IMG/VR virus record: IMGVR_UViG_3300045988_029408
Span: 1-64,000 of that record
DNA length: 64,000 nucleotides
Reading direction: 5' to 3' (one strand)
Origin: a virus
Each line of letters starts with the position of its first letter. The first letter of the stretch is position 1. The translations under genes were made by a program, and so were the position numbers. Below the pieces are notes generated by a model. That model saw only the letters and a program-made list of their open reading frames with translations. It ran no database searches and was not told where the DNA came from. Positions 13,528 to 63,518 of the stretch are shown one piece after another.

Positions 13528-13666
13528 TGAAATTGCGTATCATAATATTTTCAGTTTATCATATAATAGCCAACTACTGAGAAGGACCTTACCACTTGGT
13601 AAAAAATATAAATAATTTATTAAGGGTTAGTAGTGAAATATCGAAAGCTCTTTGTAATTTCAGACT

Positions 13667-14695
13667 ATGAAGAAATTTAAGAATTTATATTAGAAGATAA
13701 CAGATTTAGATAATATAAAGCTAGCTCATCATAATGCTAGAAAGAATAAAACTCATAGAAACGATGTAAAGAAAGTAGATGCAGATATAGAAAGATTTTG
13801 TAAGTAGATACATGATATGTTAATCAATCATACTTATAAAACTTCTGAATATTTTACTTTTAAGTTATATGAACCTAAAGAAAGAATAATATTTAAACTA
13901 CCTTACTTTCCAGATCGTATAGTACATCACGCTATTATGAACATAATGGAACCTTTGTGGATCAATTAGATGATACCTTAGACTTATAGCTGTATTAAGA
14001 AAAGAGGAATTCACAAAGTTCTTAAGTAGATATAGCATGATCTGAAAGATAGAAAGAATACTAAATACTGTCTTAAAATAGATATTAGAAAGTTTTATCC
14101 TTCAGTAGATCACGATATATTAAAATAGATAATTAGAATAAAGGTATCAGATAGAGAACTGTTATAGTTGTTAGATGAAATAATAGATTCATCAGATGGA
14201 GTGCCTATTGGTAATTACTTATCTTAGTTCTTTGCTAATCTATATCTATCTTACTTTGATCACTGGGTTAAAGAAGATAAAAACATAAAGTATTATTATA
14301 GATATGCAGATGATATAGTAATACTTTATAAAGATAAAGAGTCTTTGTAGACATTACTTAGAGATATAAAGTAGTATCTAAAAGATAATTTAAAACTATA
14401 GTTAAAGAATAATTATCAGGTATTCCCAGTAGAAAGTAGAAGTATAGATTTTGTGGGATATAAAATATATCATAATTTTACTTTAGTTAGAAAAGCATTG
14501 AAGAAAAGATACTGTAAGAAGAATGCTAAACTGAATAAAAGAAGTACTAACTATAAATATTATAAAAGAAAAATGGCTAGCTATATAGGATGGTTTAAAC
14601 ATGCTAACTGTTATTCTTTACTTACTAAAACTATTAAACATAAAGAGCTATTAGATTACCTGGATATACGTAAAGGAAATAGAACATACGAATAA
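13667..14695 (+). CDS. DGR reverse transcriptase (342 codons, 12 in-frame TAG)
   Basis: ATG 13667 to TAA 14693-14695, frame 2. Only the last 80 codons appear in the ORF track. Joined translation has PDRIVHHAIMNI, KIDIRKFYPSVDH, VPIGNYLS(TAG)FFANLYL and YYRYADDIVIL (YADD at 14303-14314). Confidence 0.9.
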
Positions 14696-29568: not shown

Positions 29569-32500
29569 ATGTCATACATAGATTTATAGAACGCTACAAA
29601 AAATCCGTCATTATACAGAAATAACAGCATTGGATTTCTGGATAAGGCTTACTATGAAAATAAGAACACCTCAGATTGGGCAGCAGATTATGATTTCATA
29701 GATTGGGCTTAGGACGCAACTAGAGATTATTATAGAAGTTTACAAAAAGGTTAGATGTAGACTTCTCAGGATAAAATGACAGTTAATAAATAGAACATTA
29801 ATGATTCTTAGAAACTGTTAGAGTTGTATGATCAATTAGATCAAGTTGATTCTAAAGACCAAGTAGCTATTATTCAGAATGAAATAAGTAATATTACGGA
29901 TTCTATGCGTAAGAATGGTAGTTGGTCATATTAGGCAGACCCTAATAGAGACCAATTACAAGGTATCATAAATGATAACCAAAAACAATATGACGAAAAT
30001 TATAAACAGTATTTAGGTGATTTAGAAGAACTAAATTAGTCCTATAAGAACTATGATATAAGTCAGTACTATACAAGAAAGAGTAATGATGCTACCGCTG
30101 GATGGGGTAATTTTTTCTATAAAATGCCATCAACTATGGGCACTAGCAACACTAGCGCCCTGTATTAGACTACTAGTATGTTAGCAGGTTGGGGAGGATT
30201 CGTAGCAGGATCTAAATTAGGAGCAGCAATTGGAGCTGCTGCTGGACCTGTTGGAGCCGCAGCTGGTGCTGTATTAGGTGGTATAATTTCTATTGGCGCA
30301 GCTCAATTATTTGGCGGAATAACCTCGCGTGAGAATGAGTCCCACATGGAAGCATTTAATGGGTATTCTGAAAAAGTATAGCAACTAGCTGAAAAGAGAA
30401 ATGTAGATCTACAACCTGTGATAAATAATACTAAGCAGCAATTAGCTAAAAAAGGTGTAGACGTTACTTATTTAAACGATAATGAAATAATACAAGCGGC
30501 ATTAGCAGATGGCGATATCATATCAGGTTCTTCAGAATTTGATCAGATAGCTAAAGAAGCATATCTTGGAACTAGAAGAATATATGAGCAGAATAATGCA
30601 CTTGGGTTTGGAGAAGTACTATCCGATTTATCTTATTTTATACCGTTGGGTAAATATCTAACAGGTACTGCAAAAACTGTTGGTAAATTTGCATATAAAA
30701 CCATAGGTAGTCCATTTAAACAAGCAATGGCTAACAGAATGGCACAAGGATTACAGGTTGCAAATCTTGGCTCCAACCTAAGAAAAAAAGTAATAGCTGA
30801 CAAACTTTTTGATTTTGTAACAGGTTCTGTATGGCGTAGCGCAGTGGAAGCGTCAGAAGAAGGTGCACAAAATGTAATTAATAAGAAGTATATGAACGAT
30901 GAGTATGCAGACGATTATGCAAATTCATCATTTTATGATGCGTTGATAGATGGTCAATTGATTGAAGATACTGTAGACAATTTGTGGCTTAGAGCTAAAA
31001 CTTTAGGAGCTGCTTTTAACATTAACCACGAATATGAAAACGATGCACAGCTATTTGAGGAGATGATGGGTGGTGCACTATTGCCATTCTTTAGTCCACA
31101 AGGTATGGTCGGTTCTGCTTTAAATGCTAGAAAAACATTCAATGATATTACTCAAAGTAAAAGAGTTGGAGATTATGTTGCTACAGCGTTGATGCAACAA
31201 GACGAGATTAACCGGAATTCTGATTTTTATAAAAAGATAAGGGAAGGTGTGAATAATGGCACTTATCTTGATATGTTAGACAGAATTAGTAATATGTTAA
31301 AACAAAAAGGATCTGATGGAAAAACTACGCAATACAATTTGGACACTACTGTTTTAACAAAAGATGGCTCTATTCCTAAAGATACTGATATTGACGAGTT
31401 TATAAACGAGTAGAGAGAAGAGTATAATAATTTGATTTCTCACAAAAAACAATCAGCTAAACAATTGAATGAATTGAATTTGGACGTAGAGGATGAAGAT
31501 TTATTGCTAGCTCTTTCATGGAATGCCAAAACTGAACTTTCTAAAGCTATGGCTTTGAAAGCAAAAGAAGGTTTAGTTGCCGGAAACAATGCTATTACTT
31601 TGTTAGAAAATGAAGATTTTAAAAACAAAGCCAAACAGCTTTTGAAGAAAGATAATTTGACAGATGCACAGTTGTTACAAATAGCTACTCTTTTAATTGA
31701 TAAACAAGTTCAGCAATATTATGACCGTTTAACAGATTAGTCAATAGCGGAAACACAAATTAAAGCTGCATTAACACAAGGTAGAATAAGTAAATATACC
31801 GGGTTATTTGATGCTACAAATAGTTTGAATCAAACATTGTCAGAGAATAGAAAATCTAAGAAGCGTATAAAAGATAATATCAGTAGACTAGCTAAAGAAT
31901 TAGATGTAACAGAAGATGCACTTAACGAATTGGATGAACGATTGATCGGTGATACTAAACTGTTTAAGGGTATTCAAAATAATGCTAAAAATAGAGGTGT
32001 ATTAAATATAATATCTCCACTACTACAAGAGAAATCTGATAAACTACAAAGTACTGATAAAGAATATATATCTCAGCAGATAGCTAAATATAGAGAAACA
32101 CAACACATACAAAACAAATTAGCAGATGCCGTTAATGAAGCCTCTAGAGCACACAGTGAAGATGTTAAAGAAATTGATGAAACAAAGTCTCCTAAACAAT
32201 TAGAAGATGAAGTTACAGCATTGCAAGACGCTTAGGTTACAGAACAACGGCAGTTAATAGAGCAAGACATAAATAATACTATATCACAGTTTGAAACTTT
32301 ATTAAGTTCTATACCACAAGGAAGTGTATTACATAACATCGTTGATGAAGTAAATAAAGGTAGAGATCTTGTAGGTACAGATGCTTTATCTTATGCTAGA
32401 TATCTTAAAAACTTAATGAACAAGTTATCTAAGAGATATGCAGATAAAAAAGAAACCGAAGGTGTATCTGATCAAGATAAACAAAATTTAGATAAGCTAC

Positions 32501-35500
32501 AAAAAGCGGCTAAACACTTAGGTGATCAATTAACTAGGTTAACAGATTTGGTAGATGAGGATAATGCTAGAATATAGAGACACAATCCTAATTTTCCAAG
32601 TGATTCTACTGTGTGGTTTGATGAAAACGGAGATAGATATTCTTTTGATTTTGCAAATTCTGAATACTCTGAAAAAGAAGGATTATTGTTACATGGTAGA
32701 AAAATAGTACAAGATTCGGAAAAAGATAGAATTAATGAATAGATAAATCTATTAGAAAAAGAACTTAAATTATTAGATAGTTAGGAAGATGATATTAGTA
32801 AGCAATCTGCCGATTCGTTGAGAAAAACAATATCTCAATTAAAAGATGCATTATCATCTATGGACTTTTCTAATCAATTTACTGTAAAAGCAGATGATCC
32901 ATTATTACAAACCCTTACTACCAAAGATAATCTAGGTAACACTAAACAATTTAGTAACAAACTTAAGAGATTGGTAAATTCGGTAAATCAAAGTATAGAA
33001 GCTAATAAAAAATCTAGAAATAGAAAAAGAAGTATAGATTCTGTAGACGGTGATACTTTTGAATTTAATCTTGATAATGAAACTGGTAAAAAGCACGGTC
33101 CATTACACCAATAGGATCTAATAGAAAAAAGTAAAGACAGACCTTTAATGATTAAAGGGTATCCTTTGAATAATAGTATGGGAGCTAGAATATCTACTAT
33201 GCTAAGCAATCCTTACTATGCTAGTAAATTCTGGAGAGGGTTTATTACTATGCCTTATCAATCTTCTGATGAAGCTAAATAGGAAATAAGCAAAGATTTC
33301 GCAATACTAAAGAAATTCGGTCGTACTTTAAACAGATATAAAGCTATTGATGATTTTAATAAGATAGGAAAACAGATAGCATATCTTAGAGAGCAAGGTA
33401 AAGCTACGGACGATATAATAGAAAATATAAATAAATTAGCTAATGGTGAAATAGATAGTGTTACTGTAGGGTTAGCTAAACTAAGCAAAGATGACTACGA
33501 TAACATAGTATATGCTCTACCTGTAAGAATTTATTTCAATCAGAATAGAGTTGGTAACAAATGGTCTTATGTGGTAGGTGCAGACTTTGCAGGTTACGCT
33601 TACTCTACTGAACCTTCTAAAGCTGAGCTTGATTCACGTTCAGAATTAATACATAATTTGTGGTATAATTATAAAAAGGTAGAAAAGAAAGAAGATGTAG
33701 AAGGATTGGAAACCGAATCTTCTAAACCAGAATATACCAATAAAATAGGATTCCAACCTGGAGATATGATTGTAACAAATGGGGGATACAATTATCAAGT
33801 TACGACAATGGTAAATCCTAATCTTAATATTTATCAAAATGAAGCTGGTTAGACAATGACATCTAAAGAAATAGATGAAAAATATGAAGGTGAATTACCA
33901 GAAGCAATAACTAAAGTGTCTGCACATTTGGATGAACTTGTGCAATTAGCTAAAGAGATTGGCTACAGTAATGTGAATGTTAAATCTCTCAATGAACCTC
34001 TTAGTAATGAGCGACAGAGTACTACCAAATTGGCTCACTTACTCAAAGGTTTAGCTAAGTATGCAGATGGATTGGTAGACTTACATAGTACGTTTATACC
34101 GAAATATGTTATACCTACTTTAGGTCAAGCTGAAAAAAGAGGTACAAAAGTACAGAGTGCTAATACTGAAAGAGCTAAACAATTACTATCTTTTGCTCAA
34201 AAGTATTCACCAGAATTGTTCTTATCGTATAAGAACTATCAGGATGATAATAATCTTACGCCTATAGTAGAAGATACCGTACAGGAAGCTTTAAACAACA
34301 GATGGTTTAATGGTAAAAATTCATTAAGTATTGAATTGAACGGTGAAGTTGTAAGTACACTGGACACTTAGGATAATAGAGATTTGTTAGTTAGAATAGG
34401 TAATACTATTGAAAAATTAATTAGAGATAGCCACGATTCACAAGAATTTATGGATAAGCTAGAGATTCTGGGTTACAATTTTAAGAAAAATGGTAATTCT
34501 GAGGAGGGTAATCGTATAATATCTCAATATTTTGACAATAGAAGATTCTCAAGATTAAGTAGACCTACTAATGTAATGCAAGCTATTACTATGGGTACTG
34601 CTGAGCCTCTGAATAATATAGATTATAATAATTTTAATCGTGTAGCTAAACACGAACAATCTAAATTAAATCAAATTCAAGCATTGGGTTTAATCAAAAA
34701 TTCCGATGGTCAATATGTATTTTCTTTAGTAGATTGGTTAAAGCGTAACGCATAGGATGAAGAGTCAGCAGAAGGTAGATAGCTAGAATCAGAAGTAAGA
34801 AAGTAGGAACTTCAAACTGAGCAAGAAAGTTTACAAAAAACTGTAAGATCAATTAGGAAAAAAACAGAACTGATTAAATTTATTGGTGACAATGAAGAAT
34901 TACTTGGTAAAGAATTGTATGATCAACTTGTACGCGTTAATAGAAAAGGAGAATTTGTATTAAAATACGATAATGCTGGAGCTACCAAATCACACATTAT
35001 TGCTAAAATCAATGAAGTGTATGATTAGAAAATAAACCAAGTAAATGCTCAATTAGAAAAAGAACTTGAAGAAGAAATAAGTAAAAATGAATTTGAAGGT
35101 AAAAAAGTATCTCCTGTAATTTTTGGTTATGGTTCATATGATTCAGAAGTAGGTTCTAACATCGTGTATTTTAACAGTAAAGGTGAAAAAGTACTGGTAA
35201 AGGATGCTAACGGTACTCCTGGTGCTATTTACCTCATAACTCCCTCTTTCTTATCTTCTTCTAGAAGACACACTATTGTGCACTTAAATCCTAAAAGATT
35301 TGATAGAACAACTGCTAAATTCTTAGCTTCTATACTTAAAGGAATAAATGACGGAAAATATAATTTAAGTAGTTATGCTAGAGATATAAATGTAGAAGGA
35401 TTTATTATAGACACAGATATGTCTGTTAAGCAATTATTAGATACTTTTATATATACTGGAACAGAAGCTATAGCTAATAATCCATCGGACAACAATTATG

Positions 35501-38500
35501 CTAGATTGTTGTATGTGGATAAACAAGGGGTCCATTTTGGATAGCAGTTACTTAACGAAAATAATTTTGAAGAATTAATAAATTTTATAATTCAAAATAA
35601 AACATATCGCATAGACAGAGAAAAATTAGCAGGTTCTAGTGTGTTCGGTAATAATTTAAAAGTACAGGACTAGAATGGCAATATTCTTTTTGACCACAAA
35701 GCGGATGAAGTTTATTCTACAATACTTATTGATGACGGTATTGTATTAACAGATTTAAATAGAACATCAAGTGCTATTACAGTTAAACCCAGCGTATATG
35801 TAAATTATAAGAAAAAGGTAACATTTGTTAGTTCTGCTTAGAGGACTCAAGACAGTGGTACTTCTGCTGAAGCTAAACAAAGATTAGGAGAAGAAATAAA
35901 CTCTGATCAATTATACGACGAAATGACCAATCAAGAAAGTAAAGGTGGCATAAAAGAAGCACAAAAATATATTGAGAACTTCTTGAAAGGGTTTAAAGAT
36001 CGTATAAACAGTTTTGCTAAAGATGGCAAATTGCAACCTGGAAAATACAAAGTAGCTGTGTATGGAATGCGTAGCAAACGGATTACCGCTACGTACGATG
36101 CTGATTTATCAGCAGATACTGATACTGGTCAACTTAGTATAGCTATAAGTGAACAACCACAGTTTATAGCTAGATTAATAAAAGCTCTTATTAATAAAAA
36201 ACAAGTTCAATTAGTACTTGCAGACGAAGAAGGTAAGTTTGTACAAATAGACGGTAAAGCTATATTCTTTGGTAGAGGTTTTGAACATACCGATTTTGAC
36301 ATAGATACTAAACAAACATCATCCCAATCATCTGAGCAAGGAAATTTGTTACAGCAATTAGTTGAAGCTATGCAGTAGTTGGTATCTAATTCTAATACTG
36401 TTCCACAACAACCAGTTTAGTAGGTGGTTCATAATTAGCCTCAAACTAATTTACCAGTTGGATATAACGGTTTTAATACCCCTATTGAGAATCTTCCAGT
36501 ACAACCAAAGACGGCTAGTGAAACAACTGTAAAATTTGAAGATGAACCAGCTGAAGATACTAAAGTAAGTATACAAGAGGTTGGAGACGATTTAAAAATG
36601 TCTTTCAATGGAATTACTGTTCAAATACCAAAAGATAGTAGTAGCAGTGATTTGGAAATAGCTTTATCTTCACAAGAAGATATAACAGATGAAGATTATG
36701 ATTCTTTTATTTCTGCACTAGAAGAATATAAACAAAAACCTGAAACTAGTGTTGAAACTCAAACAGAATTGAAAGGTCTTAATTTGAGACCTACTCCAAT
36801 TTCACAGTTTGCTACTCCAATACAGGAAAAACCATAGTTACAATCTGTATAGGAACTGATAGATTTCTTAAAGACAGGGTCTTCTACTGATAAGAACAAC
36901 GCAAAACGATTAGAAAATCTTAGAAACTCTGAAAATATAAATACAGCTAAAGATATTATATCTGGAGCGTTAGCAATATGGGGTGTACAAAACAAACTAT
37001 ACAGTTCTAGATCGGAAGCGTTGTTTGATGATAATATAGGTAAATTAGCTGATTAGTTTGCTAGAGAACTGGTATATCAAGATGGAGTTAATACAGGCGC
37101 TATATTTGACTTCTTAGACCAACATGTGTAGAAAGAGGATTACGATTCCGCTTTAGATAGAGTAACAACTATATTGGGTAAAGATTTTGATTTCTCTTTC
37201 TTACCAGAAAGTAAAAGAGTGTGGGATAAAGTTAGAGGTGCTCAGATTTATGTATTTGGAGAATGTGCAGCATCTGGTATACGTTTGTACAGAGATGCTA
37301 AGCTTAATAAGATTGCTAGAGGCTCGTTCTATCATGAAGCTTTCCATAGAATTAGTCTATTTGTTCTTTCTAAAGAACAAAGAGGTAAGATGTATAATGA
37401 TGCACGCAATAAAAATACAGATCTCGCGTTTGCTTCAAATTAGCAGATAGAAGAATATTTAGCAGATAGATTTGCTGAATTTGTAATAGAAAGTTCTCAG
37501 GAGCATCCTGATAAATATTACGAAGGTAATATCTTCAGCAAAGTGTTTCAACATATTGCAGACGCTGTAAGAAATATAGTAAGGAAGCTTTCTGGTAAAA
37601 ATATAAATCCTAATTATAGTAATCTTGACAAATTGTTTAAAGATATGTATTCTGGTAGATTTGCATATGCCAAAGCTACTAAAAACAACATAGAAGAGTT
37701 TGAAAAGATGTACAGTAAAGCTCCTGTGTATTCTGGTTTCAAGGTAAACGGAGTTACTTTAGCTGAAGACGCAATCCAATATAATGAAATAATGCGTGAT
37801 ATGCTAGGTAAATTAATTTATAACTCTGGTATATATACAAATACAGATGGTAGACTATCTATAAATACCAACGCATTAAAAGCATCTTATCAACATGATA
37901 TAGCAACATATACTAAAGCCGTCATTGAGTTAGATAAACAATTGCGTAATAAAAAAATTGATAAAAACTTAAGCCGATTTAGTGATGACGATATTGCTAT
38001 AGCTTAGGCTAAGATGGTAAGACTTATTAATGTTTATAAAAATATCGTAAGAGACGATACTTGGGATCAATGGGCTGGAATAATTCGTAATTTTGTAGAA
38101 CGTCAATTTAACCTTGTCCAAGATACTTCTCACAATCCTAATAAAGTATTAAAAGCTGATATTGAAGAAGATGTTGAAATTACAGAAGATGGACAAGATG
38201 AATTACAAGAGTACGGTATAGATGTATTAGGATTTTCAGACTATCGAGATAGTTATATGAGAGATATGTATAACAGTATGGACGCTAGTATGAAAATGCT
38301 ACTATGGTCTATAACTGATTTAGATCCTACAGATGCAGCTACTGCTAAATATACGCCAGATGGTATACTCAAATTTGCAAATGTAAGAGATTTATATACT
38401 AGAATAGTACACGCTATAACTAATTCTAATAGTGTAGAAGATATGTTGAACAAACTGTATTCGGCAGCTAAGACACAAATGGAAGAAGAAAATAGTTCTA

Positions 38501-41500
38501 CTATGATGTAGGTATATCATATACTTAGTAATGAAAACACTAATAGTGCTTTATTGAACAGATTCTTTACTGACTTTGTTAAGTATATTCATAATTTTGA
38601 AACTCATTCTTACACTACTACTGCTAGAAACATAGGTTCAAATGGCGAATATAGATATGGAGCTACTACTAAGAACGGAAGTTTAGATGCAATCCAAAGT
38701 AAACTAGACAATAAATGGAAAGGATCTATGATTGTTGCGCTTGATATCATTTCTGATAAATTAAACAGTGTAGCTACTACTAGTGAAGCTGGCAAGTTAT
38801 TTAGAAATATGATAACTCCGCTAAAATAGGCTATGAACAAATTGAACATAGAAAACTTAGAGTCTATAAAAGACGTACTTAGAGAAGCAGATAAACTTTA
38901 TCAATTTGGAACTATTACTGGCGATTTATAGCAAGATGCTGTAGCTTGGCAGAAAGCTATGCGTAATGCATCTAAAAGTGGTAAGGTTGGTAAAAATTTG
39001 CTTTTACAACCTTTAAATAAGTTAAATACATCTAATGTTTCTGAATTTAGACTTCTAGAATCTTCCAATAAACGTTAGCAAGGAGTATATAAGAAGTTAG
39101 ATGAGATGTTTACTGAAAAAGGTATTCTTACTTAGTTATCTCAAATGTTTGGTTCTTATATTAAGTCTATACCATCCACACAATCTCAAAAAGGTCCCAG
39201 AAATACCAAAATATATTCAATAGGATAGTATAATTTCATAACTAGAACTTTTGCCATACTTGCTAACACTAAAGAATGGGTTGATAAGATGTTGAATAAT
39301 ATTTATAATTCTCATTCTGTGTGGTTAAGTACACTAAAAAATTTAGGTGGAGCTAAACAAGTACAAGTACACACAAAACTTAGTACAGTATTAGATGATG
39401 AATGGAATGACTCTGTAGCAGATAAAGAAGTAACAGAACTAGAAGATTTGACAAACAGGTTTATATCCATATGGTCAGGTAAACATGTTACACCAGCGTT
39501 GGCTAATAAAAGATTTGCTGCTGATATTGAAGGCATACCGATATTTGAAAACATAATCAATGATAATTTAGATATAAATCCTAAAGTAATAGATGTATTT
39601 GTTGGTTATTTGGCAGATGAAATTATGGCTATATCAGATGCTAGATACACTAGAGATTATTTCATTGAAAAGTTGAACTAGGCAACTAATAGCAATTACA
39701 CTATTGATTCGTTCTCAAAATTGTCCTCATTGTAGTAGGAACAAATATTTAAAAATAACCCAGAAGCTGCTAAGTTACTTAGACTATTAGTAAAAACGTA
39801 TCATTACGTAGAAGGAGAGCAGCAATGGTTATACGATGAAGTTAATGATAGATATTACAGAAGAGCGTTCCATATAGATTTACGTTCTGGTAAAAAAGGT
39901 CCTAGAGGATACGAATTTAGGCACTTTAAAGATATAGGTAAATCTATAAATCTTTCTTCTAACGTGGTGCAAAAAATATCTTCTAATATGTTCGATACAG
40001 ATTCTCGTCAAAGTTCTATAGATTATGTTTATAATATGATAAACCGAGAAAGTATCAGAAAACAAATAAGAAGCATGTTAAATGATAATATTGCATACGC
40101 TATCGTTAAACTACAACAATTAAAAGCTATTATAGTAGATGATGCTGGTAATATAACAAGTAATCGTTACTTGCCTTCAGATTTAATTAAAAAATATATT
40201 TATGGTAAACAATCTGTTAATGTAAACGAATTAAGCGGTAATGATTATTATAGAGCTATTGGTTCTGCTGTAATACAAGGTATGTCAGATATATCAGAAT
40301 TTGAGAAACTATGTCATGGAGATATTGCGTATCATAAAAATATTGACGGTGTAACTAAACGTTATTCAGGTATTGTTTCTACAACTTCTCTTACTTCAGA
40401 GAAAGGTACTATGAGAAACGTGTTTGACGAAGAAGATAGATTATTCGATAGTAACACATATAATTCTGTTACTTTGAACACCACAATGGTTGTAAATCAA
40501 GCTAAGTATAAAGGGGAAGCATACAGAGCTCTTGGGCTATCTGAGAACATGGTTAAAATATATTTGGAAGATAATAATATAAAAGTAAATATTGACACTT
40601 CTGACGTATTAGATGCTGATGGTAACATAAAAGATAATTATCGTAAAGCTAAATTGATAAATCGGTTACTGCAATTTAGAGAAGAACGACGTTTGAAAGT
40701 AATGATCAACGGAGAACCAATGTCTGATGCATAGTTATTAGATGTTGCAGTAAAAGATTTTGAAAACAGATACGAAGGTTATCTTAAAAACGACCCATCA
40801 GATGCTCAAAGTTGGGTTACCAGTCAAATGTTTAGAGCTTTACAATAGCGAAAAGGGGCGTGGAACGATGTATCTGAAGCTATATATAATCTACTTACTT
40901 ATTATGACAAATTCGGATCTGATAAGCTTACTCCTAGAACTATAAGGCTTATTTAGGATAATATATGTAAAGTGCTTAATATAAATTATGACGAATTAGT
41001 AAAAAAAGCTAAGGCATACGATGCTAATAAAACTAATTTAAACAGTAAAGAAGTGCGCGATTATAAAGGGTGGATTTTTGGTATTGCTGATAAATTCAAA
41101 TTTGAATCGCCATCTCTTAAGTATATTTACTACGGATACGATTAGGGTAGAATGGATGGACTTACTACTCCAATTTATGATAAATCTTCTTATAAAGTAT
41201 TATGGAAGATTGAAGTAGAAGGACATGAAATACAACAGTTATACGATTTTATGCAAGATAGTAATGTAGACGTGGTTAAACAAGAAACTGCCGTTAAATC
41301 AGGAGGTTTACCTAACTTTGAATTGTTCGATTTAAACGGTAAGGTGGATAGAGCTGCACTAAATGCTTCAGTAATTCAATCGCAATACTTTTCTTTGTTA
41401 GGAGACCAGCTTAATACAGCTTCACATCACACAAACGACGCTAATCTATTGACTCAATTTATGAAAGTGGCAATGATGAACACAAATAAAGACAGACGAT

Positions 41501-44500
41501 ATAGAGTTAATGGTGTTACAGTTGATGGTCAAATGCTTCAGACATTCTATAAAGCGATTCTAGATGAACTTACTAGAAGAGGGTCTGTTAAATTTAACAA
41601 AAAATGGGGTATAAACGATAACGGAGTTGTTGATAAAAAAGCTTTTATGAAGTCTTTATAGACCATGGCTCAAACTGAGAATCTTCCAGCTGAAACAGTA
41701 GCTGCTTTCCAAGTCGATGAAAACGGTGAATTTAAAATACACCCAGCAGCAATGCCAAATATTGCTTGGATAATGTCTCGTATTCTTGCTCAAATGGGTG
41801 ATACTATAATAGATACTGTTACTCCAGGTAAAGCTTTGTATCAGGTAACTAGTGTTGGTTATGATAATTTCATGAATTTGAAGCAACATGCTGACAAACA
41901 TCTATATATGCCTGGGGAAATTGATTCTAACGGCAATATTCATCAAAGAATGCAAGTTAGATTGTCTATAAATTTCTTTGACGATGTAATATAGGAAGCT
42001 AAACGTAATAAAATTAAAGGATACGATTTTGATAACTTTGAAGATCAGCGCAGGTTCATACTAGATAATAAGGAATTATTTGCATTATCATATCGTGTTC
42101 CTACACAGGGGTAGAATTCAACTATACCTGTTGAAATAGTAGATTTAGTACCTAGTCTTAATGGTAGCATGATCCAATTCCCTTCTGGTATTACTGCACT
42201 TACTGGTTCTGACTTTGATATTGATAAAATGTTCTTAGCTAGATACAATTATGAAGTTGTTAATGGTAAAATGCAAAAAGTTAAGTATGATATAAATGAA
42301 GTGATGAATAATATAAACAGCACCGATTCCAAAAAATTACAAAATTTCTTATTAGATATGTATCAAGGTGTGTTGACTTCTTTAGATCATGCGTTGGCTA
42401 CTAGTACTCCATTGGACGTTGCTACAGGACCTATTAGTACATTTGCCAAGAAAGAACTAGAAGAATATTCTGGAGGTAAAGCAGACGGATTACCTGATAA
42501 TTTAGACGGATTTTATCTTAACCCAGTATTCCAAACAAGGTAGAAAAAGCTTAATTCAGGGTCTGATGCCGGTATTGGTCCTATGGCGTTAAATAGTGTA
42601 TTCTAGTTCTTTGTTCAGATTGCTAAATTAGATATGCGTAAATTCCCAATTATTGAGCAATTGAGATTATAGAAATTAGGAGAAACTTTTGATAGATACG
42701 GTGAAGAAATATTGGATTCAACTTCAGGTCTTATTAACGCGTTTGTAGATGCTGCTAAAGATAACTATATCGGCAACGCTAATGTTAACGCTTATACTTT
42801 TGATGTAGTAGCTATGCTAATTGCATCTGGGTTTGGTAATGACACGTTTGCATTCTTAACACAACCTATCATAAAGGAAATTTCTGATAACTGGTTGACT
42901 TATAAACAAGGACTCATTGGTGTATCAGATTAGGAAAAAAGAGGTACATATTTTATGGACTCTGTAATAGAAGATTACAATGACAGATTAAAATCTTTAA
43001 GTGCTGAAGATACACCAGAAAAAGAGTATTCAGAACTGACCAAACACGATGTATTAATGGGCAATCTTAAACCTAAACATGACGCTAGATGGATTAAAGA
43101 TTAGCTTACATACGCAAGTATGTTTAGACAATTGTATGAATTAGCAAAAGAGTACCACAATGCTATTTCAAATGCTCAGATTGATACTAAGAAGTACGGT
43201 GTTAACATTAACCAATTACTTTCTTTTATTCAAGGTGTGAACCAATTCAACTCAGAATATAATATTGCATTTAGTAATCCTAGAGATATGTATGATAATA
43301 CGTTCTTAGGAGCTAAGTATACTAAGGGAGTTATGGGTATATTTGACACATTTAGTAAACTATTACCTGAATTTTCCAAAGTATATATTGATGCAGCTAA
43401 TGAACTTAGTAAAGAATGGGGTTTATATGGTAGACAAAGTAAAGAATTCCTAAGAGTGGTTGGACCTAAAATAAAAACTGTACTTTATTTGCCATTCTTT
43501 AATCAGTATATAATTGAGAGATTTGGCGGAAAAGCTTTAGCAAAGTTAACATATGGTGAAAATAGCGTTCCTGGAAGATATGAAGCTATTAAACGTAAAG
43601 CGTTACGTAGAGGTGAAGGAATAGACTTGTTCAACGCTGTTAAGTATAACAAACTTGGAGATGTCAAAGTTCCTCAATTCATGTTGGTTACACAACAGTT
43701 TAAAGAAGATTCTGACGTTAAAAATAATGTCCAGTTAGCTTTAAGTGAATTATTCAATAGCACTGATCCTGAAATAAAACAATGGGCTGAAGATTTTGCA
43801 GTTTATATGTTCTATGTATCTGGCGGTACTGATTCAAATGCTGGTGGTATTGTTAGAACTACAGTATACGATATTATTCCACCACAGTACTTAGCTAACT
43901 TAAGAGCTGGTGGAAAGACATTTAATTAGTATATTGCTGAAAATGTCATGGGTAGAACAACAGGTATGACTAATACTGAAAAAGACCAAATAATTAGCTT
44001 ATTGGCTGTATCTGATGACAATTATGTTCCTACTATATCTCCTAGAAATCACAAATATGTAATCAAAAGAGTTGTTGGTAATGATGTGATTACTATTACT
44101 AAAGGATCCAATTCGTTATTTAATAGAAGTACTAATACTTATAGTCCTTTTATTAAAATAACCACTTCTAATGGATATGACTTATATCGTCTTGGAGAAA
44201 AAGTGTCTTCTATTTCTAAAAAAACAGGTACAACATTTTCTAATCCCGTATATTATAAAGTTAATAAACTTGGATATAAGAGTAATAAGAGACAGTCGTT
44301 TGCTTTAAGAGCTGATGGTTACATTAGTGAAGACGGCACTATAAGGTCTTTACTGTGGTAGGATAATGATTTTAATAAATTGGGATTCAATAGTTTGAAT
44401 GAGAAAGAATAGTCTATTTATATGAATAATACTAATACTACTCTAGATAAGATAGATGATGCTTTAAGTGGAAGTATAGATTATTCTAAATATTTCAATT

Positions 44501-44901
44501 CTCAAAAAGCCAATGATGATTCTGAACAGCAAAGAGCTTTAGTAGATACTGTAGATGCTGTGTATTTTATAGCGGACAGTTCTTTCAGTTATCATTTGCC
44601 AGTTAGAGACTATGCTAGATTTAAAAATAAAGAATTTTATGTAATATCTATAGATTAGACTGAAATACCCACAGCAAATGGCTAGAAAATAGCAATCATT
44701 GGTGATTCTGCAAATACTGCTATAGAGATATACAAAAACAATTCTGATAAATAGATATATACGTTTGTAAATTATTTCGGCGAACGGTCTTCTGTATTTT
44801 AGGCGCTGTACAATTAGATAGGTGATGAGTTAAATAACAATAAAGAATCTGAGGATAGTGATTAGAAAGGTAGTGCTATTAAAGATAAATGTAAAAATTA
44901 A
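29569..44901 (+). CDS. Giant polyvalent virion protein (5,110 codons) with a two-barrel RNA polymerase DxDxD motif and an HExxH motif
   Basis: All 24 frame-1 track ORFs from 30178 to 44422 and every gap between them were read codon by codon. 67 in-frame TAGs and no TAA/TGA until TAA 44899-44901. Contains RVPTQG...GSDFDIDKM, HEAFH, and an N-terminal Gly/Ala zipper (30178-30330). Confidence 0.8.
37333..37347 (+). other. HExxH (HEAFH) zincin-like motif inside the giant ORF
   Basis: Context is GSFYHEAFHRISLF ... EEYLADRFAEF. Confidence 0.5.
42211..42225 (+). other. DFDID metal-binding motif (crAss-type virion RNAP signature)
   Basis: Reads gac ttt gat att gat. Preceded by YRVPTQG(TAG)NS...ITALTGS. 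Confidence 0.7.
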
Positions 44902-60597: not shown

Positions 60598-62619
60598 TTA
60601 AAACAACGTTAGTTGTCTTGGTTTTAATTCTTCAATGATCTTTAACGCTTCCTTTAAATAGTAGCGATAATTGATCTTTCTTTCTTCTATAGGTTTATTA
60701 TCAAATTTATTTAGTATAGTAACACCAGATGCAGTAAGTAGATTAGTATAATTACTTCTTCTACCTTCTTCATCTTTAGTACACTTATACAAATAAGGAC
60801 CATTAGTAGATGCATAGAATCTATTGATTCTTTGTATCAGTTCTCCATTATATTCTACAGAGAATTTCTTATCTACTTTCTGGTAAGTAAGGAACTTCTT
60901 AATATCTTTACAATTGTAGATAGTATCTTTTACAGGAATACCATCAACAAAATAATCTCTAATAGCTTCAGGGATAATCTTTGCAGACATTCCCTTACCA
61001 AGTAAAACTTTAGTAATAAACATACCTTTTTCTTTGATATAATCATCTTTAATCATATCTAAAGAAGTATAAGGTTTCTTCTTTTTATTTAGAGCTTTTT
61101 CTGGTTTAGTTTCAAACAACTTTTTCATTGCTTGATAACCTTCTTTTACAGCTATATAATCATTAATAGCATATTGATACATAGCTTCAAAACGATCTTC
61201 CTCTAGAGTTAGTTTCGTTTGTTGTTCCCATTCCTTACATATACTTTGTAATTTTTCATACAGATTCTTCTTAAGAAGAACAAATAAACCATCTGTATTT
61301 GCCTGTACTATTCTACAGCCAATATCAGATAATCTTTCTGCTAACATAAGTAATAGTAATTGTCCATTTATTCTAATCTGCATTACTGCGAAAGGACTAT
61401 AACAGAAATTATGTTCATTCTGTAGATTACCACTAAGACCGTTTAATGCTAATTTAAGCGTTTTATCTTTAGTCTTAATACCATTATGTTTTGCTTCTAT
61501 TCGTTCATCTTTAACTTGATTATAAACTTCTAGAAATTCAGGACCCAAATGCTTTGGGTAGAATTTATACTCTATTATCATACTAGGATACAGAGATGCA
61601 ACATCAATATCTATTAACATTTCATCTTCCTTAGGAATAATTATCTCAGGTTTGTTTTCAGAGTGAATACCACCAACTCCTACAGAATATTTTAATCCTC
61701 TAAATACAAATTTGTTTTCGTATCCTTTTCTACCTGGTGATACTATCTGCTTTTTCATATCAGATAGTACATTACGAAGTATAGGATCTTTATATTCTAT
61801 ATAAGGCAATATTACTTTGTTTAGGTCTATAACATCTGCTGGGCTTCTTAAATCTTTAATATCCCACCATGATAGACCAGTCTTTTCAAGATATTTCTGC
61901 GTTAGAATTTTCATTCCAATGTTTACTCCATCTTTACTTAGTACTCTTACTTTATATTCATCTTCGATAGCTATTCGTAATTCTATATCTTCAGAACACA
62001 GATTTAATAATTTTTCAGTAGAATTAACATCATTCACATTATACTCAATCATCTCTTCTATTCTATCTTCTTCTAGAAATTTATTAAAATCTCCATTGAA
62101 TTCTAGAACATTAGGATATTGCATAGTTACTTGCATTTCCTTCAATCCAACACGTAGTTTTTGTGAATATAACATAGTAAGTATATCAAATGAATCATAC
62201 CATACTTGATATTTCCATTTTTTCCATGCTTCTATGTTGTCATCTGCTTGAGATGTAGTTATAGTTCTACTTAAGTTAAAAATACTATCACATATCCTTA
62301 GATATGGTTTATTTTTAAGTATATTATAATAATCTATTATATAATTAATAATAGGATTATCATAATGTAAATTATTATATCCTGCAAAGATTTTATTTGA
62401 ATCAATTTGAGTTTCAGTAGTATAGAGATCTCCAAATTTTAATGGTATATTAACATTTGGTACACGAAAAAAATCAACTAATTCTGATAATTGATTTTTT
62501 CTGCTTGATATCTCAAACTTATGAAACTTTCCTGATTCAGTATTCTTTGCTGTGCAATGAAATACATTAGGGAAAACTTCAATATCATAGACATATACTG
62601 TTTTTCCTCTTATCTTCAT
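60598..62619 (-). CDS. Family B DNA polymerase
   Basis: Exo I YDIEVFPN, Exo II NNLHYDNPII, Exo III YNVNDV. Pol motif A DVASLYPS, motif B KLALNGLSGNL, motif C NTDG. Confidence 0.85.
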   Translation of the reverse strand: MKIRGKTVYVYDIEVFPNVFHCTAKNTESGKFHKFEISSRKNQLSELVDFFRVPNVNIPLKFGDLYTTETQIDSNKIFAGYNNLHYDNPIINYIIDYYNILKNKPYLRICDSIFNLSRTITTSQADDNIEAWKKWKYQVWYDSFDILTMLYSQKLRVGLKEMQVTMQYPNVLEFNGDFNKFLEEDRIEEMIEYNVNDVNSTEKLLNLCSEDIELRIAIEDEYKVRVLSKDGVNIGMKILTQKYLEKTGLSWWDIKDLRSPADVIDLNKVILPYIEYKDPILRNVLSDMKKQIVSPGRKGYENKFVFRGLKYSVGVGGIHSENKPEIIIPKEDEMLIDIDVASLYPSMIIEYKFYPKHLGPEFLEVYNQVKDERIEAKHNGIKTKDKTLKLALNGLSGNLQNEHNFCYSPFAVMQIRINGQLLLLMLAERLSDIGCRIVQANTDGLFVLLKKNLYEKLQSICKEWEQQTKLTLEEDRFEAMYQYAINDYIAVKEGYQAMKKLFETKPEKALNKKKKPYTSLDMIKDDYIKEKGMFITKVLLGKGMSAKIIPEAIRDYFVDGIPVKDTIYNCKDIKKFLTYQKVDKKFSVEYNGELIQRINRFYASTNGPYLYKCTKDEEGRRSNYTNLLTASGVTILNKFDNKPIEERKINYRYYLKEALKIIEELKPRQLTLF

Positions 62620-62634
62620 AGCGTATAAATTTAG

Positions 62635-62752
62635 TGGAGTATATGGGAATCGAACCCATGATGCCGATTGGTTGCAGCACTATAAATAGTGTATTAGAGT
62701 CTCTCTAATATTCCTCCCTGTACCCTGCGCTTGCCTACTAGCTGAATACCCC
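62635..62752 (-). tRNA. Oversized tRNA-like element 2 (118 nt) containing a CUCUAAU heptamer
   Basis: 7-bp acceptor GGGGTAT/ATACTCC with G3:U70 and discriminator A. U8. D-arm (A)GCT-AGTAGGCA-AGC(G) with GG in the loop. T-arm ATGGG-TTCGATT-CCCAT (62643-62659). About 45 extra nt include the 8-bp hairpin TATTAGAG/CTCTAATA (62692-62710). Confidence 0.55.
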
Positions 62753-62798
62753 ATGAGGCAGGATTCTTTATAGACTATCCTGCTAAAAGTCTGTCGCT

Positions 62799-63518
62799 CT
62801 ACGCTGCTTGCTTTATCTCTGGCAAATGTTTAGCAAAGCATTTCTTTTCTAAAGTTGCTCTATCTACTATTGTAATAGATTCATAATTACTATACTTATC
62901 AGATAACTTTGTATTTAGTTTAGTAACTACTTCGGTAAGTTGTTCAATGGGTAGATTAGAGTAGCTTGTTTTAAACTCTTTATCGTTTGTAGTAGCTACA
63001 ACTACTTTATACGGTCTTTGTTCTAAATATCGTAGCTTCTTAGACATCTTGAACTCTGCAAGTTGTTTAGCTACTTTCTTAATTTTCTCTTCGTGAGCTG
63101 CTTTATAAGCTTGTTGTTTAGCAATACGTTCTGCTTTATTGCTACCATATAGATTCTGTACCAATTCTTTATGGTAACCAGAATAAGGACGTTCTTCTAA
63201 TAACTGTTTTTTATCCTTTTTATCAGATACCTGTGTAGGTTTCTTAGGAATACTAGCTATTCCTTTTTTGGTTTCATGATACTCTTTTCGTGCATTAGTA
63301 GCTTCAGGAGTCCACTTATAAGTATATACTTCTCTACTTACTATTTTATCATGACGACGAGTAGTTACAAATTCCTTTGTCATAGGTTTAATATTTTCTG
63401 ACAAAGATATTCCTTTACTACACATAGATTTATAATCTGAGGATTTAGTTAATTCGTAACGTTTCTGTAAGTTTTGCTGGTATTTAGCATTTTTCTTATT
63501 TCTAGTATCTTGATTCAT
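62799..63518 (-). CDS. Hypothetical Lys-rich protein; stops on TAG
   Basis: Intact 239-aa ORF. The stop codon is TAG (complement of 62799-62801). Confidence 0.7.
   Translation of the reverse strand: MNQDTRNKKNAKYQQNLQKRYELTKSSDYKSMCSKGISLSENIKPMTKEFVTTRRHDKIVSREVYTYKWTPEATNARKEYHETKKGIASIPKKPTQVSDKKDKKQLLEERPYSGYHKELVQNLYGSNKAERIAKQQAYKAAHEEKIKKVAKQLAEFKMSKKLRYLEQRPYKVVVATTNDKEFKTSYSNLPIEQLTEVVTKLNTKLSDKYSNYESITIVDRATLEKKCFAKHLPEIKQAA

Follow-up and report, generated by a model that had tools for sequence, protein, structure and literature searches.

A tRNA-Ala-derived tRNA-like element in the tRNA slot before the DNA polymerase gene of a crAss-like phage

The locus and the architecture of the element

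This study concerns a 118-nucleotide (nt) tRNA-like element in a 64,000-nt stretch of viral DNA (IMG/VR record IMGVR_UViG_3300045988_029408, positions 1 to 64,000; this whole stretch is called the window). The element is at 62635..62752 on the minus strand, between gene X and polB, and it was recognised from its sequence, a partial match to the Rfam transfer-messenger RNA (tmRNA) model, and its alignment with tRNA-Ala(GGC). It cannot read codons, and it occupies a tRNA slot before polB that is conserved among related crAss-like phages. The gene following the element, polB (60598..62619, minus strand), encodes a DNA polymerase of 673 amino acids (aa) (phrog_1252, E 2e-144) and is the first gene of the replication module. 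Its ATG is at 62619, and a 15-nt spacer (CUAAAUUUAUACGCU, 62620..62634), whose first base is C, separates this start codon from the discriminator of the element. On the other side is gene X (62799..63518, minus strand), which encodes 239 aa ending in ...KQAA-TAG and has no match in Pfam or PHROG; the element begins 46 nt after its TAG (62801-62799). Both distances had been given in a preliminary description of this DNA and they were correct. The region is 98-99.5% identical to the crAss-like phage cr6_1 (NC_055894.1; Suoliviridae, Bearivirinae, Afonbuvirus faecalis) and to MT835473.1.

The minus-strand RNA from 62752 to 62635 reads GGGGUAUUCAGCUAGUAGGCAAGCGCAGGGUACAGGGAGGAAUAUUAGAGAGACUCUAAUACACUAUUUAUAGUGCUGCAACCAAUCGGCAUCAUGGGUUCGAUUCCCAUAUACUCCA. 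The acceptor stem has 7 base pairs (bp): GGGGUAU (nt 1-7, 62746..62752), which includes G3, pairs with AUACUCC at 62636-62642, which includes U70 and is followed by the discriminator A73 (3' strand and discriminator, 62635..62642). The D-arm AGCU-AGUAGGCA-AGCG (nt 10-25, 62728..62743) has G18 and G19 in its loop and is similar to the D-arm of a Bacteroidales tRNA-Ala(GGC); its stem consists of three Watson-Crick pairs and an A10.G25 mismatch. The T-arm AUGGG-UUCGAUU-CCCAU (nt 94-110, 62643..62659) is perfect and equals the T-arms of tRNA-Ala(GGC) and of a phage tRNA-Ala(UGC). U8 is kept, and all partners of the tertiary core are in the element: U8/A14, G15/C93 (the equivalent of position 48), G18G19/U55C56, and U54/A58. 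The preliminary description had listed the GGGGUAU start, the AUACUCC-A end, the 7-bp acceptor stem with G3:U70 and A73, U8, the GG in the D-loop, the perfect T-arm, and the length of 118 nt, and each of these can be read directly in the sequence. No CCA is encoded, and the tail reads ACUA rather than ACCA.

Where a tRNA has its anticodon arm and variable loop, constrained folding gave a central domain of 68 nt (nt 26-93, 62660..62727). Two hairpins meet at a junction that is closed by a GCAG:CUGC stem (nt 25-28/76-79), and a 14-nt tail follows. Hairpin 1, UAUUAGAG-AGA-CUCUAAUA (nt 43-61, 62692..62710), has a perfect 8-bp stem, and hairpin 2 is CACUA-UUUA-UAGUG (nt 62-75, 62678..62691). With the tRNA core enforced, the best fold has -29.4 kcal/mol and the GCAG:CUGC stem sits where the anticodon stem would be. 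The heptamer CUCUAAU (62699-62693) is within hairpin 1, as had been stated earlier. The central domain was seen in the lineage of the window alone, and the element was found in 48 contigs of IMG/VR and in 36 from metagenomes. Locally, the G+C content of the element is 45%, compared with ~30% in its surroundings.

When both strands of the window were scanned for a T-arm with a 7/7 acceptor stem, this element and two AT-rich matches were found, and about two matches are expected by chance. The element at 62635..62752 is the only convincing tRNA-like match in the window. Hairpin 1 has no significant second copy within the window, so the idea of a repeat or mobile element is unsupported. A palindrome in the giant late open reading frame (ORF), TATTAGG-CAGAC-CCTAATA at 29929-29947 (plus strand), has the same outer arms as hairpin 1 with 3 mismatches (~0.15 expected) and is probably a coincidence. 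The ORFs that overlap the element are trivial (23-31 aa), which does not support a small peptide. GC skew flips near 50 kb and not at the element, which does not support an origin of replication.

Searches for tRNA, tmRNA, and other RNA families

Neither a tRNA nor a tmRNA was found by ARAGORN in any part of the window, and the element itself gave no call with or without introns, in tmRNA mode, or in relaxed mode. In relaxed mode, sister haplotypes alone gave a call, a 95-nt "Ile(aat)" that is not plausible, and with the intron option (-i) the anticodons called for other occupant types of the slot were inconsistent among close relatives. A permissive local Rfam search matched the tmRNA model (RF00023) at 62632-62752, aligning only the acceptor stem and T-arm (21.1 bits, gathering score 47, E 1.9e-6). 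With this local E value, the element is more than a chance resemblance. At gathering score and at E <= 10, Rfam gave no match to the element beyond this partial one, and no intron family. A bacterial Y-RNA-like (YrlA) mimic was not indicated either: no such Rfam family was matched at E <= 10, and the element's own ends form the acceptor stem.

The preliminary description had suggested a tmRNA-like tRNA domain, and the resemblance in the acceptor stem and T-arm was borne out. The element and the tRNA-like domain of tmRNA share the GGGG start, G3:U70, A73, the GGGUUCGAUUCCC T-arm, and the lack of an anticodon, and tmRNA is the best Rfam match. The element also ends in UCCA, and alanyl-tRNA synthetase (AlaRS) charges minihelices with G3:U70. 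The element might then be a miniature tmRNA-like molecule or an alanylated tRNA mimic acting on ribosomes. However, the score is far below the threshold, ARAGORN -m reported no tmRNA, and the tag region is missing: the two halves are separated by only 83 nt, and the 118 nt contain neither pseudoknots nor an mRNA-like domain, which would have a resume codon, a tag frame, and a stop. The D-arm is normal, unlike that of tmRNA. Moreover, elements in the same slot of other lineages have unrelated acceptor identities, and natural variants of the element itself have A3:U70. Identity with tmRNA was rejected, and we consider a tmRNA-like function very improbable.

One RNA in the window did reach the Rfam gathering score, namely an unrelated RT-17 RNA at 13585-13667 (plus strand; 44.5 bits, gathering score 40.4). 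Immediately downstream of it is an ORF of 342 codons (13667-14695) with 12 in-frame TAGs, which has the length of the cr6_1 reverse transcriptase gp25.

Origin from tRNA-Ala

Scanning one genome per bacterial species with the 23-mer at the 3' end of the element led to a tRNA-Ala(GGC) in the Bacteroidales metagenome-assembled genome JAOAFV010000013.1. Nucleotides 1-8 and the last 27 nt of this tRNA are identical to the element, and the two D-arms resemble each other. The acceptor/T-arm minihelix also recurs unchanged in the tRNA-Ala(UGC) of an unrelated phage that has 16-24 tRNAs in an array. The acceptor stem, U8, T-arm, and discriminator are thus those of canonical tRNA-Ala, whereas the element has 68 nt in place of the 21-nt anticodon arm and variable loop and has no 7-nt anticodon loop. 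These shared sequences show that the element is a host-type tRNA-Ala whose anticodon arm and variable loop were replaced by the central domain, and its alanine identity set is inherited. The same 23-mer (T-arm and acceptor 3' strand) also occurs in a Dehalococcoidia metagenome-assembled genome (JAUWQY010000011.1, locus L270 277-299), where ARAGORN recognises neither a tRNA nor a tmRNA.

The element is not the amber suppressor of the phage

In the window, TAG recoding is confined to the plus-strand late genes (1-49.6 kb). The ORF at 29569-44901 (plus strand), for example, has 67 in-frame TAGs among its 5110 codons. In the minus-strand replication module (49.6-62.6 kb), no in-frame TAG was found among ORFs of at least 150 aa. 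The TAG of gene X is a real stop codon, since the homologous gene ends with TAA at the same place in other lineages and some sister contigs have a 1-nt indel right behind the TAG. In RefSeq, gp56 of cr6_1 (NC_055894.1 49990-50814; locus L001 5283-6107; window ~62694-63518) reads through this TAG and ends at the TAA inside CUCUAAU, and an ORF call with genetic code 15 stretches polB upstream to 62754. Both the read-through and the extension are probably artefacts of gene calling with code 15.

The preliminary description had proposed that the element is an intron-bearing or structurally gated amber suppressor tRNA that exposes CUCUAAU as its anticodon loop. The heptamer does fit the pattern Y-U-CUA-R-N, the phage recodes TAG in its late genes, and expression of a suppressor before the late genes would make biological sense. 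The intron part of the proposal found no support, as neither the ARAGORN search with introns nor the Rfam search, in which no group I intron or tRNA model was matched, detected anything of this kind in the element. A group I intron would not fit in an insert of ~46 nt, and we know of no splicing machinery for a 46-nt intron in a bacterial tRNA. The gating part failed in the comparison of fold energies. The proposed anticodon stem, AGGGU/ACACU, gives -11.9 kcal/mol, compared with -14.2 kcal/mol for the core alone and -25.2 kcal/mol for the core with both hairpins. The stem therefore costs +2.3 kcal/mol over the core alone, while the two hairpins gain about -11 kcal/mol. It also requires 22 nt to be looped out and leaves a variable region of ~28 nt. 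No anticodon arm (a 5-bp stem and a 7-nt loop with U33) appeared in the minimum-energy or constrained folds of the element, whose 118 nt also exceed the ~73-95 nt of a canonical tRNA.

Other sequences also argue against a suppressor. Phage cr6_1 encodes a canonical 74-nt tRNA(CUA) beside the terminase gene, in a region outside this window. A 25-mer of this tRNA was found in 13 IMG/VR contigs, and 7 of the 13 also carry an element of the window type, so the two coexist. Across the lineages examined, CUA was absent from all slot occupants, which have UCU, CAC, UUC, CAU, and other anticodons or no anticodon arm. The window type is invariant in the CUA-bearing region, and thus no covariation can be read there. 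A covariation analysis across relatives had been suggested as a check: covariation was found in the acceptor and T stems, and the homologous loci lacked CUA. We conclude that the element is not the amber suppressor of the phage and that it is unable to read codons; a gated or intron-bearing suppressor is extremely unlikely. Since the element is not a suppressor, the conflict between its AlaRS identity and the reading of TAG as glutamine disappears.

A tRNA slot before polB in Suoliviridae

Related loci were fetched with the N-terminus of PolB. The PolB sequences of the first set are 68-100% identical, and the second set was anchored on Boorivirinae. In the first set, all 77 loci with readable upstream sequence carry a tRNA or tRNA-related sequence before polB (in locus L101 only a 3' half), and in the second set the slot is filled in most loci. 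Wherever an element could be parsed, its end is 14-24 nt ahead of the polB ATG. The slot is annotated in GenBank as a tRNA-Val in cr1_1 and a tRNA-Ser in cr50_1, both Boorivirinae. The polB-leader tRNA slot is conserved in three subfamilies of Suoliviridae, and it was absent in the examples of Intestiviridae and Steigviridae that we examined. In the parts of the literature that we searched, which include the tRNA mentions in Yutin et al. 2021 (PMC7886860) and in a Crassvirales review, this slot is not described.

The occupants of the slot are diverse. Canonical ones are tRNA-Arg(UCU), tRNA-Val(CAC), tRNA-Glu(UUC), tRNA-Met(CAU; with a C1xA72 mismatch), tRNA-Thr, and tRNA-Ile. Non-canonical occupants include forms with inserts of 45-70 nt and forms that keep only the acceptor stem and T-arm. 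One type of ~118 nt has a 45-52-nt insert with three direct AUAUUCGUA repeats in an expanded anticodon loop (L080, L087, L089-L095, L112, and also cr56_1 of Loutivirinae). Occupants of 58-59 nt have no anticodon arm (L081, L083-L086). A 90-nt type, from Boorivirinae-like loci, consists of an acceptor stem and T-arm around the 20-nt palindrome CUAUAUAAGCGCUUAUAUAG (L130-L137, L149-L169), and a class with an oversized loop ends in the conserved GUGUGAUU (L096, L103, L173). Beyond ordinary D-arm words, no interior motif is common to the occupant types. Decoding is not the conserved property of the slot.

Even close relatives of the window differ in what the slot contains. In L041, whose PolB N-terminus is 98% identical to that of the window, a tRNA-Arg(UCU) without similarity to the window element lies between the same flanks. 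Including L041, a canonical tRNA-Arg(UCU) lies between these flanks in L041, L057-L061, L182, L184, and L188 (PolB N-terminus 90-98% identical). The dissimilar sequences between the same flanks in L041 and the window mark a precise cassette swap rather than gradual decay, and the slot content is polymorphic at about the species level.

The 3' side of the slot is more uniform. The base directly behind the discriminator is C throughout the 57 unique occupants, and CCA is not encoded in any of them. The tRNA(CUA) of cr6_1 has the same CUAA trailer (locus L002 25900-25904). The invariant C and the CUAA trailer may be a signature of 3' processing.

Covariation and sequence constraint

We examined the acceptor/T-arm minihelix in 48 unique occupants, which are partly independent tRNAs. 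Paired states were found in 96.4% of cells, and both sides vary in 11 of the 12 pairs. The covariation score was 1.14, compared with 0.22 in shuffled alignments (0 of 500 reached the observed score) and 0.15-0.27 when the partner was slid. The comparisons within occupant types are sequence-based and are free of the circularity that arises when a strand is placed by complementarity. In the window type, pair 6:67 has a compensatory change between A6:U67 and G6:C67 at intermediate frequency, and one contig has the A6.C67 intermediate. The other stem variants of this type also keep pairing (G3 to A, giving A3:U70; A22 to G, giving a U:G pair; C107 to U and C108 to U, giving G:U pairs), and the D-loop has the variant U16 to C. 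The 90-nt type (L130) has compensated changes at 1:72, 3:70, 7:66, and 49:65, and compensatory changes were also found at 5:68 in the L103 type and at 6:67 in L083/L084.

Nucleotide diversity was calculated from 36 window-type contigs. It is 0.0745 at the third codon positions of gene X, 0.031 at the third positions of polB, and 0.0105 at the first and second positions of polB. In the element, the acceptor stem has 0.075, the D-arm 0.0285, the T-arm 0.0065, and the central domain 0.0016, with 2 segregating sites among 68; the spacer has 0. The central domain is thus ~20-fold less diverse than the third positions of polB. A metagenome scan in which the middle of the element was left unspecified gave 36 contigs in which the central domain is invariant. 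It yielded known haplotypes only, and without divergent copies no covariation can be read within the central domain. In the 90-nt type the interior has a diversity of 0.015, compared with 0.13 at the third positions of polB and 0.25 in the acceptor stem, which is still paired. Low interior diversity and stem changes that preserve pairing show that occupants unable to decode are being maintained, with sequence constraint on their interiors.

These results bear on whether the element is a neutral relic, that is, a dead tRNA-Ala gene with an insertion that merely fills the gap. ARAGORN rejects the element, the slot is empty or holds only a 3' half in some lineages, and the A3:U70 variant and the contig with A6.C67 could be taken as signs of decay. 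However, all stem substitutions together keep pairing, including one full compensatory pair, the diversity of the central domain is 0.0016 against 0.03-0.07 at third codon positions, and the same pattern of compensation is found in other non-canonical occupants. The element also has no residual similarity to the tRNA-Arg whose place it takes in sister genomes, and so it arrived as an intact unit. Of the earlier suggestion of a decayed tRNA, the derivation from a tRNA, here tRNA-Ala, stands. The decay does not, because pairing is kept and the insert is conserved relative to the neighbouring codon positions. A neutral relic is improbable.

The invariant sequence of the central domain could also reflect a site in the DNA, for example an operator or promoter of the replication (middle) module made of perfect palindromes of 19 bp and 14 bp inside a tRNA relic. 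Other occupant types contain a 20-bp palindrome or the three direct AUAUUCGUA repeats, and the slot is the meeting point of small upstream genes of no assigned function and the replication genes from polB on. Yet no motif is common to the occupant types, palindrome 1 recurs in the window no more than expected by chance, and the canonical tRNAs in the same slot have no such palindromes. The acceptor and T stems, with their compensatory changes, indicate a fold at the RNA level. We regard a DNA site as a slightly poorer candidate than a neutral relic.

A candidate processing signal in the polB leader

The intergenic leader between gene X and the element (62753..62798, minus strand, 46 nt) folds with -11.3 kcal/mol (z -1.9), and the fold of a 221-nt context is uninformative (z = -0.5). 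The leader contains the hairpin GCAGGAU(12 nt)AUCCUGC at 62783-62758, which lies 5 nt upstream of G1 of the element and covaries in L079 (AUAGGU/ACCUAU). A further pairing, AGACU/AGUCU (62792-62788 / 62776-62772), is interleaved with this hairpin, and together the segments could form an H-type pseudoknot. When the sequences upstream of the slot were compared (the window, L079, and L126-L190), the interleaved segments read AGACU..GCAGGAU..AGUCU..AUCCUGC in the window and ACAG..GUGCGU..CUGU..ACGCAC in Boorivirinae, and in Loutivirinae there is instead a small hairpin with a YAAUA loop.

The leader hairpin has no U-tract and was not called as a terminator, and a scan for sigma-70 promoter and intrinsic-terminator consensus sequences called no terminator-like site on either side of the element. 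In the spacer, the sigma-70 scan was at background, and by eye we saw no consistent Bacteroides -7/-33 motif across lineages. Given the 15-nt spacer, the lack of a terminator call, and the lack of a consistent -7/-33 motif, the element is most likely transcribed as part of a gene X-polB transcript.

In several known systems, a tRNA or tRNA-shaped module in a longer transcript sets the ends of other RNAs. In mitochondrial tRNA punctuation and in the E. coli thrU-tufB operon, tRNAs are embedded in a polycistronic transcript, and their excision sets the ends of the neighbouring mRNAs. The slot would be alike in that a tRNA is embedded in the transcript, but the tRNAs of those systems decode, whereas the slot occupant is often non-decoding. 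In MALAT1 mascRNA and the tRNA-like/pre-miRNA units of murine gammaherpesvirus 68 (MHV68), a tRNA-shaped module recruits RNase P and/or RNase Z and the product does not decode. Those modules belong to eukaryotes or, for MHV68, which like the present element is viral, to a virus of eukaryotes; here the downstream product would be an mRNA, and no downstream small-RNA cargo of their kind is indicated.

The closest likeness is to the t-elements of plant mitochondria (Forner et al. 2007, PMC1920247), non-canonical tRNA-like structures that RNase P and RNase Z cleave, creating mRNA ends. RNase P also acts on RNAs other than tRNAs, some of them phage RNAs and mRNAs (PMC11143913). Like t-elements, the phage element is a non-canonical cloverleaf with an acceptor-like stem and the T-arm motif GGTTCRANYCC, here GGGTTCGATTCCC. 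Plant t-elements are directly upstream (or downstream) of protein-coding genes, as the slot is, and genuine tRNAs and degenerate forms occur at equivalent positions. The differences are that the phage is not an organelle, that the slot is tied to polB alone, that its content is exchanged as cassettes, and that the element has a large insert constrained in sequence. The ends of plant t-elements are mRNA ends formed by RNase P and RNase Z (PMC1920247), while for the phage element such cleavage is our proposal.

We thus favour, with about an even chance, the reading that the element is a t-element-like processing signal for RNase P and RNase Z in the polB leader and that it carries a constrained cargo. 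The host RNase P would cut at G1 and leave the upstream mRNA ending in a protective structure, with the leader hairpin shielding the new 3' end. A 3' endonuclease such as RNase Z would cut at or near the discriminator. Two products would result: a polB mRNA whose leader is short and AU-rich, and a stable RNA of ~118 nt in the shape of a tRNA. The conserved parts, namely the acceptor/T-arm minihelix and in the window also the elbow, would be what RNase P and RNase Z recognise. Because of its strong sequence constraint, the central domain very probably has its own sequence-specific role, such as protein binding or RNA pairing.

Several points weigh against this reading. Co-transcription and cleavage are inferences, and the promoter and terminator scan used the sigma-70 consensus, so that Bacteroides or phage promoters are outside its reach. 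Processing leaves the conservation of the central domain unexplained, and likewise an acceptor stem that evolves at least as fast as synonymous sites. Part of the low diversity of the central domain could reflect a recent spread of the cassette. In the covariation test, the 5' acceptor strand was placed by complementarity, and the percentage of paired cells is therefore partly built in. CCA is an anti-determinant of RNase Z, and the invariant C74 could hinder this enzyme rather than help it; if C74 blocks the cut, the tRNA-like fold might stay on the polB mRNA as a 5' stabiliser. Finally, the slot is empty in cr118_1 (Uncouvirinae), L141, L145/L170, L179, and L180. In L101 (IMGVR_UViG_3300029611_000003), it holds the 3' half of a tRNA, a T-arm and CCCCGCA-A followed by CUAAC, with no matching 5' acceptor strand. 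Since the slot is empty or holds only a 3' half in some Suoliviridae lineages, the element is dispensable or replaceable by something else. The 3' half in L101 resembles the 3' end of the tRNA-Val and tRNA-Met occupants.

A different function that would account for the constrained interiors is that of a small RNA acting in trans. The tRNA frame would then provide no more than precise excision and stability, and the cargo, which differs by lineage, would bind a host or phage factor; the RNA could, for example, act as a decoy for a defence that targets tRNAs, inhibit such a defence, or regulate the replication module. The non-canonical interiors are far more conserved than neighbouring codon positions, different lineages have unrelated cargos that are exchanged as cassettes, and the acceptor stems evolve fast yet remain paired. 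In the window element, the nucleotides of the tertiary core are intact. Nevertheless, no target or partner was found, and a search for complements of the purine-rich loop was at chance level. In close relatives the slot holds canonical tRNAs or armless forms, so that no particular cargo is needed, and its fixed place beside polB suggests a role in cis. A small RNA acting in trans is a secondary possibility, better placed than a relic or a DNA site. In a wider form of this idea, Suoliviridae would use the tRNA frame of the polB leader as an exchangeable scaffold for lineage-specific small RNAs, which are excised by the tRNA-processing enzymes of the host and act in trans. Such RNAs might be decoys or inhibitors of host defences directed at tRNAs, or regulators of replication timing. 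We hold this wider form to be rather doubtful as well.

Implications

The false lead of a hidden suppressor tRNA in this recoded phage is removed by these results. In an abundant family of human-gut phages, an RNA with the shape of a tRNA is kept directly before the DNA polymerase gene, and in this slot decoding has been repeatedly lost or swapped while the fold has been retained. If the element is a processing signal for RNase P and RNase Z, the slot would be to bacteriophages what tRNA punctuation and t-elements are to organelles, and it would offer a handle on the expression of the replication module in uncultured crAss-like phages. If the cargo acts in trans, the slot occupants would add a new class to the small RNAs of phages, and if the tRNA frame serves as an exchangeable scaffold, the fast but compensated turnover of the acceptor stem and the swapping of cassettes would reflect an arms race.

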